Source: Escherichia coli (GTDB lineage Bacteria > Pseudomonadota > Gammaproteobacteria > Enterobacterales > Enterobacteriaceae). From it: a stretch of 64,000 nucleotides of DNA. The notes beneath the pieces are model-generated. The model was not told the DNA's origin, made no database searches, and saw only the letters and a program-made list of their open reading frames with translations. The stretch lies in NCBI RefSeq assembly GCF_003334785.1, contig NZ_QOWV01000002.1. The stretch is one strand, 5' to 3'. This document shows positions 16,334 to 16,644 of this stretch, piece by piece. The position numbers and the translations under genes are program-made. The stretch's first letter is position 1. The number at the start of each line of letters is the position of its first letter.

Positions 16334-16644
16334 TCGTGTTTATGACCTGTTAAAACTTCGCGAAGTGATAGAGCAGTATAAAGGGTACAGTGTGAAATTC
16401 CAGACTCTTACCTGATTGATGATTCTCTATTCTCCCGTGATATTTATCATCCTGCATTGGGGGAAATAGATGTACAAGCGCCATTTTGCTGTACAAATAA
16501 CCTACAAAAAGCCCAACAAAAATAATTGCAAATAAACAAAGATTGCTGGAAATTATGCGGATGTTAATTATTTGTGAAATAGTTAACAAGCGTTATAGTT
16601 TTTCTGTGGTAGCACAGAATAATGAAAAGTGTGTAAAGAAGGGT

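Follow-up and report, generated by a model that had tools for sequence, protein, structure and literature searches.

A 79-codon open frame between micF and rcsD in Escherichia coli is very probably a chance stop-free run over promoter DNA

Validated small hydrophobic inner-membrane proteins of Escherichia coli have a recognisable ribosome-binding site, a frame conserved across the enterobacteria and a detected product. On the regulatory side, the closest described system is rcsDB of Salmonella enterica, which is transcribed from two starts, -157 and -36, and whose activation by SirA requires the interval -270 to -220 (Salvail & Groisman 2020, PMC7241856). For E. coli, Kim et al. (2012; PMC3415461, supplement 2) mapped the rcsD transcription start 36 nt upstream of the ATG, and the SMRT-Cappable-seq data of Yan et al. 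(2018; PMC6131387, supplement 4) place a b2216|b2217 start at 2313451, that is, at -37. The latter table holds a single rcsD-rcsB operon start and does not list a micF-rcsD read-through operon.

We have analysed an open frame of 79 codons that lies on the minus (rcsD) strand between micF and rcsD, within a window of 64,000 nucleotides (the whole stretch of DNA studied here). We conclude that this frame is very probably a chance stop-free run over the promoter and upstream regulatory DNA of rcsD-rcsB, and not a gene. The window is a K-12-like chromosome segment in reverse orientation and is distinct from MG1655 (28 mismatches over about 63 kb); near the locus, a window position x corresponds to MG1655 coordinate 2313488 + (16333 - x). 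It lacks the IS5K insertion that MG1655 carries in yejO, and its 113-bp tandem repeat between eco and mqo (24756-25082) has 2.9 copies, three fewer than MG1655. Feature coordinates are collected in Table 1.

Table 1. Features of the ompC-rcsD region and of yojO, in window coordinates.
Feature	Position	Strand	Basis or remark
rcsD coding sequence	13661..16333	-	890 aa
Leader block GTTTTAACAGGTCATAAACACGA / GTTTTAACAGGTCATAAACACGAATG + ATG	16331..16356	-	column identity 0.96; holds the frame's TAA and the weak AGG Shine-Dalgarno of rcsD
79-codon open frame	16350..16589	-	MG1655 2313232..2313471; judged a chance frame, non-gene
rcsD (rcsDB operon) transcription start	16369..16370	-	PMC3415461, PMC6131387; Salmonella rcsDB -36 agrees
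Block TACCCTTTATACTGC with -10 TATACT	16371..16387	-	column identity 0.99, third codon positions too; frame codons 68-73
Block AGTCTGGAATTTCA	16393..16406	-	column identity 0.90; proximal promoter -35 region; frame codons 62-66
TATTTGTAC block (16499..16491) + second TTGTACA	16471..16499	-	direct repeat, 19 bp start to start
Near-palindrome TGTTAACTATTT-cac-AAATAATTAACA, 27 bp	16562..16588		12-nt arms, 92% complementary; overlaps the TTG start
Two further open frames through micF, 75 and 33 codons	16564-16791, 16593-16694	-	open-frame list
Block TGTGCTACC	16608..16616	-	column identity 0.92; upstream of the frame
Block TTTTTTTTACCCT / TCTTTACAC, terminator T-run + 14 nt	16631..16652	-	column identity 0.96-0.97, 24 taxa; upstream of the frame
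micF small RNA	16645..16738	-	Rfam RF00033, 114 bits vs gathering 79; NC_000913.3 annotation
micF intrinsic terminator stem	16673..16651	-	terminator scan; T-run follows
ompC	17072..18175	+	gene call in window
yojO	25712..25876	-	translates to MHTPIGVKPVAGSKEWREAWQKRAFAHISNGYKYIYIAIDSPEIFLLVCSLIRI

The frame runs from TTG 16589 to TAA 16352-16350 and contains two internal in-frame starts, TTG 16496 and ATG 16484, the latter opening a version of 44 codons. The end of its TAA and the A of the rcsD ATG (16333) are 17 nt apart, leaving a gap of 16 nt. The preliminary description had given the same coordinates, codon counts and 17-bp distance, all of which can be read directly from the sequence, and its placement of the frame between micF and rcsD agrees with the Rfam match to MicF, the sole structured RNA recovered in 15000..18500 (other matches fell far below gathering thresholds). 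Two further statements hold in part. The hydrophobic stretch is present in the 79-codon frame (residues 17-33, LCLFAIIFVGLFVGYLY), but it lies upstream of ATG 16484, so the 44-codon version does not contain it. Similarly, the statement that no convincing Shine-Dalgarno precedes either start holds for TTG 16589, where pairing with the anti-Shine-Dalgarno is nil (+0.2 kcal/mol). Pairing is weak at TTG 16496 (-3.2 kcal/mol) and ATG 16484 (-3.1 kcal/mol), yet it is -3.2 kcal/mol at rcsD itself, and because ATG 16484 pairs no more weakly than rcsD does, the measure cannot discriminate for that start.

Mapped transcription argues against the frame being expressed as described. Both E. coli start datasets (PMC3415461, PMC6131387) give only -36 and -37, and neither documents a transcript spanning the frame. 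The start falls within the frame's seventh codon from the end; thus about 220 of the frame's 240 nt lie upstream of the mRNA and only its last 7 or so codons are in the leader, which contradicts the earlier placement of the frame in the rcsD leader. The frame also does not have the layout of a leader peptide: it is mostly outside the mapped 36-37-nt 5' untranslated region, and its start and stop positions are not conserved. Annotation of NC_000913.3 shows no feature between micF (2313084..2313176) and rcsD (2313488..), and PGAP-annotated genomes call none there either.

Conservation in the spacer follows DNA elements and not the reading frame. The locus was taken from 80 species-representative genomes, with the first 400 residues of RcsD as query, and the spacer was aligned for 26 sequences from Escherichia, Citrobacter, Salmonella and Intestinirhabdus. 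Conserved columns across these 26 taxa are limited to short blocks near micF, at TATTTGTAC, in the core promoter and in the leader. Column identity falls to about 0.60 between the blocks, where indel lengths are not divisible by three, and conservation by codon position in the frame is flat (0.670/0.660/0.659). We considered whether the frame's C-terminal peptide, ...SGKSLEFHTVPFILPYHF (frame end SLEFHTVPFILPYHF), might be conserved as protein, and rejected this: the segment is nucleotide-perfect including third positions and coincides with the core promoter. The cross-genus likeness of SLEFHTVPFILPYHF arises because it is translated from an invariant promoter block, which other species read in another frame. 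The two further open frames that run through micF behave alike: it is solely the conservation of the small RNA that makes their 'peptides' (for example MSVYPYFNRM...) seem conserved between genera.

The TATTTGTAC motif, conserved in Escherichia, Citrobacter and Salmonella alike, forms a direct repeat with the second TTGTACA. The repeat may be a regulator site or an element of a distal rcsD promoter, and its second copy (TGTACATCTA) may resemble an OmpR half-site. The 27-bp near-palindrome is found in E. coli only and is not conserved in the other species aligned. It occupies -255 to -229 from the rcsD ATG, within the interval that matches the Salmonella SirA requirement (-270 to -220; PMC7241856). 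Directly 3' of the micF T-run, 14 nt (ACCCTTCTTTACAC, 16631-16644) are near-invariant from Escherichia to Citrobacter and Salmonella and have no obvious role; they may belong to the 3' end of micF or bind a protein. In strain 5444, a clinical E. coli (134-831 of the sequence retrieved from NZ_CP103515.1), an IS1 sits between ompC and micF and presumably separates micF or ompC from part of the common regulatory region.

At the level of species, E. coli and Escherichia sp. MOD1-EC7003 are the only ones of the 26 taxa compared in which all 79 codons stay open. The frame is missing, shortened or replaced by unrelated frames in E. albertii, E. whittamii, Escherichia sp. E1V33, and the SCPM-O-B-8794 and E69 lineages, and likewise in all Citrobacter and Salmonella sequences compared. 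Even in Escherichia sp. MOD1-EC7003, the nearest clade, the internal ATG is ATA (Met36 to Ile).

Variation within the species was assessed in 14 sequences, namely 13 E. coli including the window and Escherichia sp. MOD1-EC7003 as outgroup, of which 12 have the frame open. In E. coli S40 and S42, loss of 1 bp from a C-run shifts the frame and brings a stop after 52 codons; searched as an exact 61-mer, this deletion allele occurs in 285 of 5426 complete genomes. Variants in the frame are mostly amino-acid-changing (R11S or R11D, C18R, I23N, G26R, P42H, M45I and G52W among the 14 sequences). Nine of the 14, the outgroup among them, read LRLFAINFVG... in the hydrophobic stretch, where Arg and Asn interrupt it; thus the uninterrupted K-12 stretch is a derived state. 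By the Nei-Gojobori method, dN/dS of the frame is 0.53-0.95 compared with 0.065 for rcsD in the same genome pair, and with 4-17 substitutions per pair this is an absence of evidence for constraint and no proof of neutrality. The dN of the frame (0.067) is 6.5 times that of rcsD. The preliminary description had named the lack of a ribosome initiation peak, disruption in close relatives and the lack of a purifying-selection signature as what would speak against a coding role, and the last two are the pattern seen in the taxa survey, the deletion allele and the dN/dS values. High variability of the region also fits a source-tracking study in which single-nucleotide variants of the ompC-rcsDB intergenic region (window 16334-17071) serve as host-informative markers in E. 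coli (PMC11267920).

These data bear on whether the frame could encode a young protein of 44-79 aa, confined to E. coli and too recent for purifying selection to show, with low-level translation of rare transcripts that read through the micF terminator or start at a distal rcsD promoter. We regard this as very improbable. It would account for the frame being open in 12 of the 14 E. coli and clade sequences, for the unbroken 17-residue hydrophobic run of the K-12 allele, and for the 'hypothetical protein' calls made over the frame in some GenBank assemblies. But the majority allele, which is also the ancestral one, has that run broken by Arg and Asn, the frameshift is carried by 285 complete genomes, the TTG lacks Shine-Dalgarno pairing (+0.2 kcal/mol), and a transcript covering the frame is unreported in the PMC3415461 and PMC6131387 start datasets. 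A dN/dS indistinguishable from 1 and a codon usage of non-coding character also weigh against it. The main texts of Stringer et al. 2021, Weaver et al. 2019, Meydan et al. 2019 and two small-protein surveys do not mention rcsD or micF.

Codon usage was scored as log-odds, with 27 long genes of the window as the training set. The 79-codon frame scores -0.03 and the 44-codon version -0.08 bits per codon. The former value is lower than that of all 166 segments of 79 codons taken from real genes in the window (minimum 0.006, mean 0.32, sd 0.11), and lies inside the spread of spurious frames of 60-120 codons (mean -0.19, sd 0.20). The frame shows no codon-position periodicity and has no match in Pfam or NCBIfam. 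A search of 5.8 billion proteins returned 11 small clusters only, all of them domainless 'hypothetical protein' entries from Escherichia/Shigella. The hydrophobic appearance of the peptide has a simple source in composition, as T makes up 36% of the sense strand of the frame and 44% of its second codon positions, where it specifies Phe, Leu, Ile and Val.

Two observations run counter to chance: the frame is kept open in most E. coli sampled, and it is longer than most shuffles of its spacer would give. Dinucleotide-preserving shuffles of the 311-nt micF-rcsD spacer give a sense-strand frame of 79 codons or more in 1.6% of cases. For the 738-nt ompC-rcsD intergenic region the figure is 12.5%, or 15% when both strands are counted. 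As an E. coli genome has very many intergenic regions, we infer that one such frame is unremarkable. Nor is it the only long frame here, as one of 75 codons crosses micF on the same strand. The earlier suggestion that the frame may be chance in AT-rich DNA is borne out by conservation, broken frames, substitution pattern, codon usage and family searches.

A different role would not require the peptide sequence to matter. Translation of 44-48 codons (from ATG 16484 or TTG 16496), on a longer rcsD leader from a start like the Salmonella -157, would stop 17 nt short of the rcsD ATG and could modulate rcsD translation, either through coupling or by making its weak ribosome-binding site accessible. 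The distal start described in Salmonella (PMC7241856) lends this some footing. In E. coli, -157 falls directly after the first TATTTGTAC copy and 6 nt upstream of ATG 16484, and this placement is the sole observation keeping the reading alive. From such a hypothetical 5' end near window 16490, ATG 16484 would be about 6 nt away and translatable in principle, and the stop sits just upstream of the AGG of rcsD. However, the distal start is listed in neither E. coli dataset (PMC3415461, PMC6131387), the ATG is ATA in the nearest clade and absent in other Escherichia, and species differ in the frames used and in their stops (-17 or -7).

The position of such frames was also compared across 77 taxa. 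In 32 of the 77, a sense frame of 30 codons or more stops no further than 30 nt from the rcsD ATG, and over all 77 the longest frame ending in that interval averages 24.0 codons, against 19.2 in shuffles of the variable part. But p was at most 0.05 in 6 taxa where about 4 were expected, the median p was 1.0, and the taxa are related. None of the three frames has a stop within the conserved promoter block, so frames of this kind arise automatically. We therefore rejected an upstream frame defined by position only, as the excess over shuffles is marginal and gives no real support. We hold translational control by an upstream frame on a longer leader to be highly unlikely. Equally slight is the chance that a recently born frame, read from a -157-like start, tunes RcsD synthesis or gives a lineage-specific peptide of 44 aa. 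Were this true, translation from ATG 16484 would tune RcsD synthesis or yield such a peptide.

On the chance-frame reading, the region works as DNA and not as coding sequence. From micF towards rcsD it comprises the terminator of micF, a T-rich spacer that is poorly conserved apart from short motifs, the proximal promoter, and a leader of 36 nt whose Shine-Dalgarno is weak. The conserved spacer motifs are presumed to be regulator sites or a distal promoter, and the proximal promoter has the -10 TATACT with the start at -36/-37. That promoter has the properties of a sigma-70-type rcsDB promoter, with a mapped start, a well-spaced -10 hexamer (TATACT, 16380..16375) ending 5-6 nt upstream of the start, and a core kept across genera. 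A consensus promoter scan found sites no more numerous than in shuffles and missed the proximal rcsD promoter because its -35 is poor; since it misses a real promoter and shows no excess over shuffles, the scan is uninformative either way.

A single base of the window deserves mention here. At 16372 the base on the rcsD strand is T, against C in MG1655; the site follows TATACT and precedes the rcsD start by 2-3 nt. All 13 other aligned Escherichia have C, and the window's exact 61-mer occurs in 0 of 5377 complete E. coli genomes with the locus. The T changes frame codon 73 from Pro to Leu, and could change rcsD promoter strength.

The preliminary description had also raised the possibility that the frame is the annotated small gene yojO, and this identity can be dismissed outright. 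Nothing speaks for it beyond the presence of a yoj-named small gene in the neighbourhood. Annotation places the real yojO (b4604, 54 aa) between napF and eco (MG1655 2303606..2303770); it lies in the same 64-kb window and on the same strand as the frame, 9.5 kb away, and has no similarity to it, BLASTP of YojO against the 79-codon frame giving zero alignments even at E<=100. Among the literature matches listed for yojO, none concerned the gene.

The biological weight of these findings is low, and their main use is to avert mis-annotation and to correct the yojO link. Nevertheless, they illustrate a general trap, in that T-rich promoter DNA easily gives long stop-free frames that resemble a membrane helix in translation. 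If a frame of this kind spans a conserved promoter, the C-terminal end of its 'peptide' seems conserved across genera though the constraint is on the DNA. Additionally, the footprint of the micF-rcsD spacer offers a set of short conserved blocks as candidate regulator sites for the operon of the Rcs phosphorelay.

Compared with PrcsDB of Salmonella (PMC7241856), the E. coli locus shares its position downstream of micF, a near-identical core promoter block TACCCTTTATACTGC and leader, and the -36 start. The TATTTGTAC motif is also common to both, and in Salmonella it is near the distal -157 start. The two differ in that E. coli is documented with -36/-37 alone (PMC3415461, PMC6131387) whereas Salmonella also has -157; the spacer between the conserved blocks cannot be aligned between them, and the 27-bp palindrome is particular to E. 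coli.

Compared with proteins, the frame resembles the validated small hydrophobic inner-membrane proteins of E. coli in size and, in the K-12 allele, in having one hydrophobic segment. Unlike them, it begins with a TTG that has no ribosome-binding site, is not conserved, and has its hydrophobic segment interrupted by Arg/Asn in most strains. YojO, an uncharacterised protein of E. coli K-12, is also a small frame but, unlike the 79-codon frame, is annotated in NC_000913.3. The likeness is closest to the spurious 'hypothetical protein' calls made in AT-rich intergenic DNA. Like these, the frame is called sporadically by automated pipelines and dropped by PGAP/RefSeq, and it shares their non-coding codon usage and neutral substitution pattern, with nothing to set it apart from the class.
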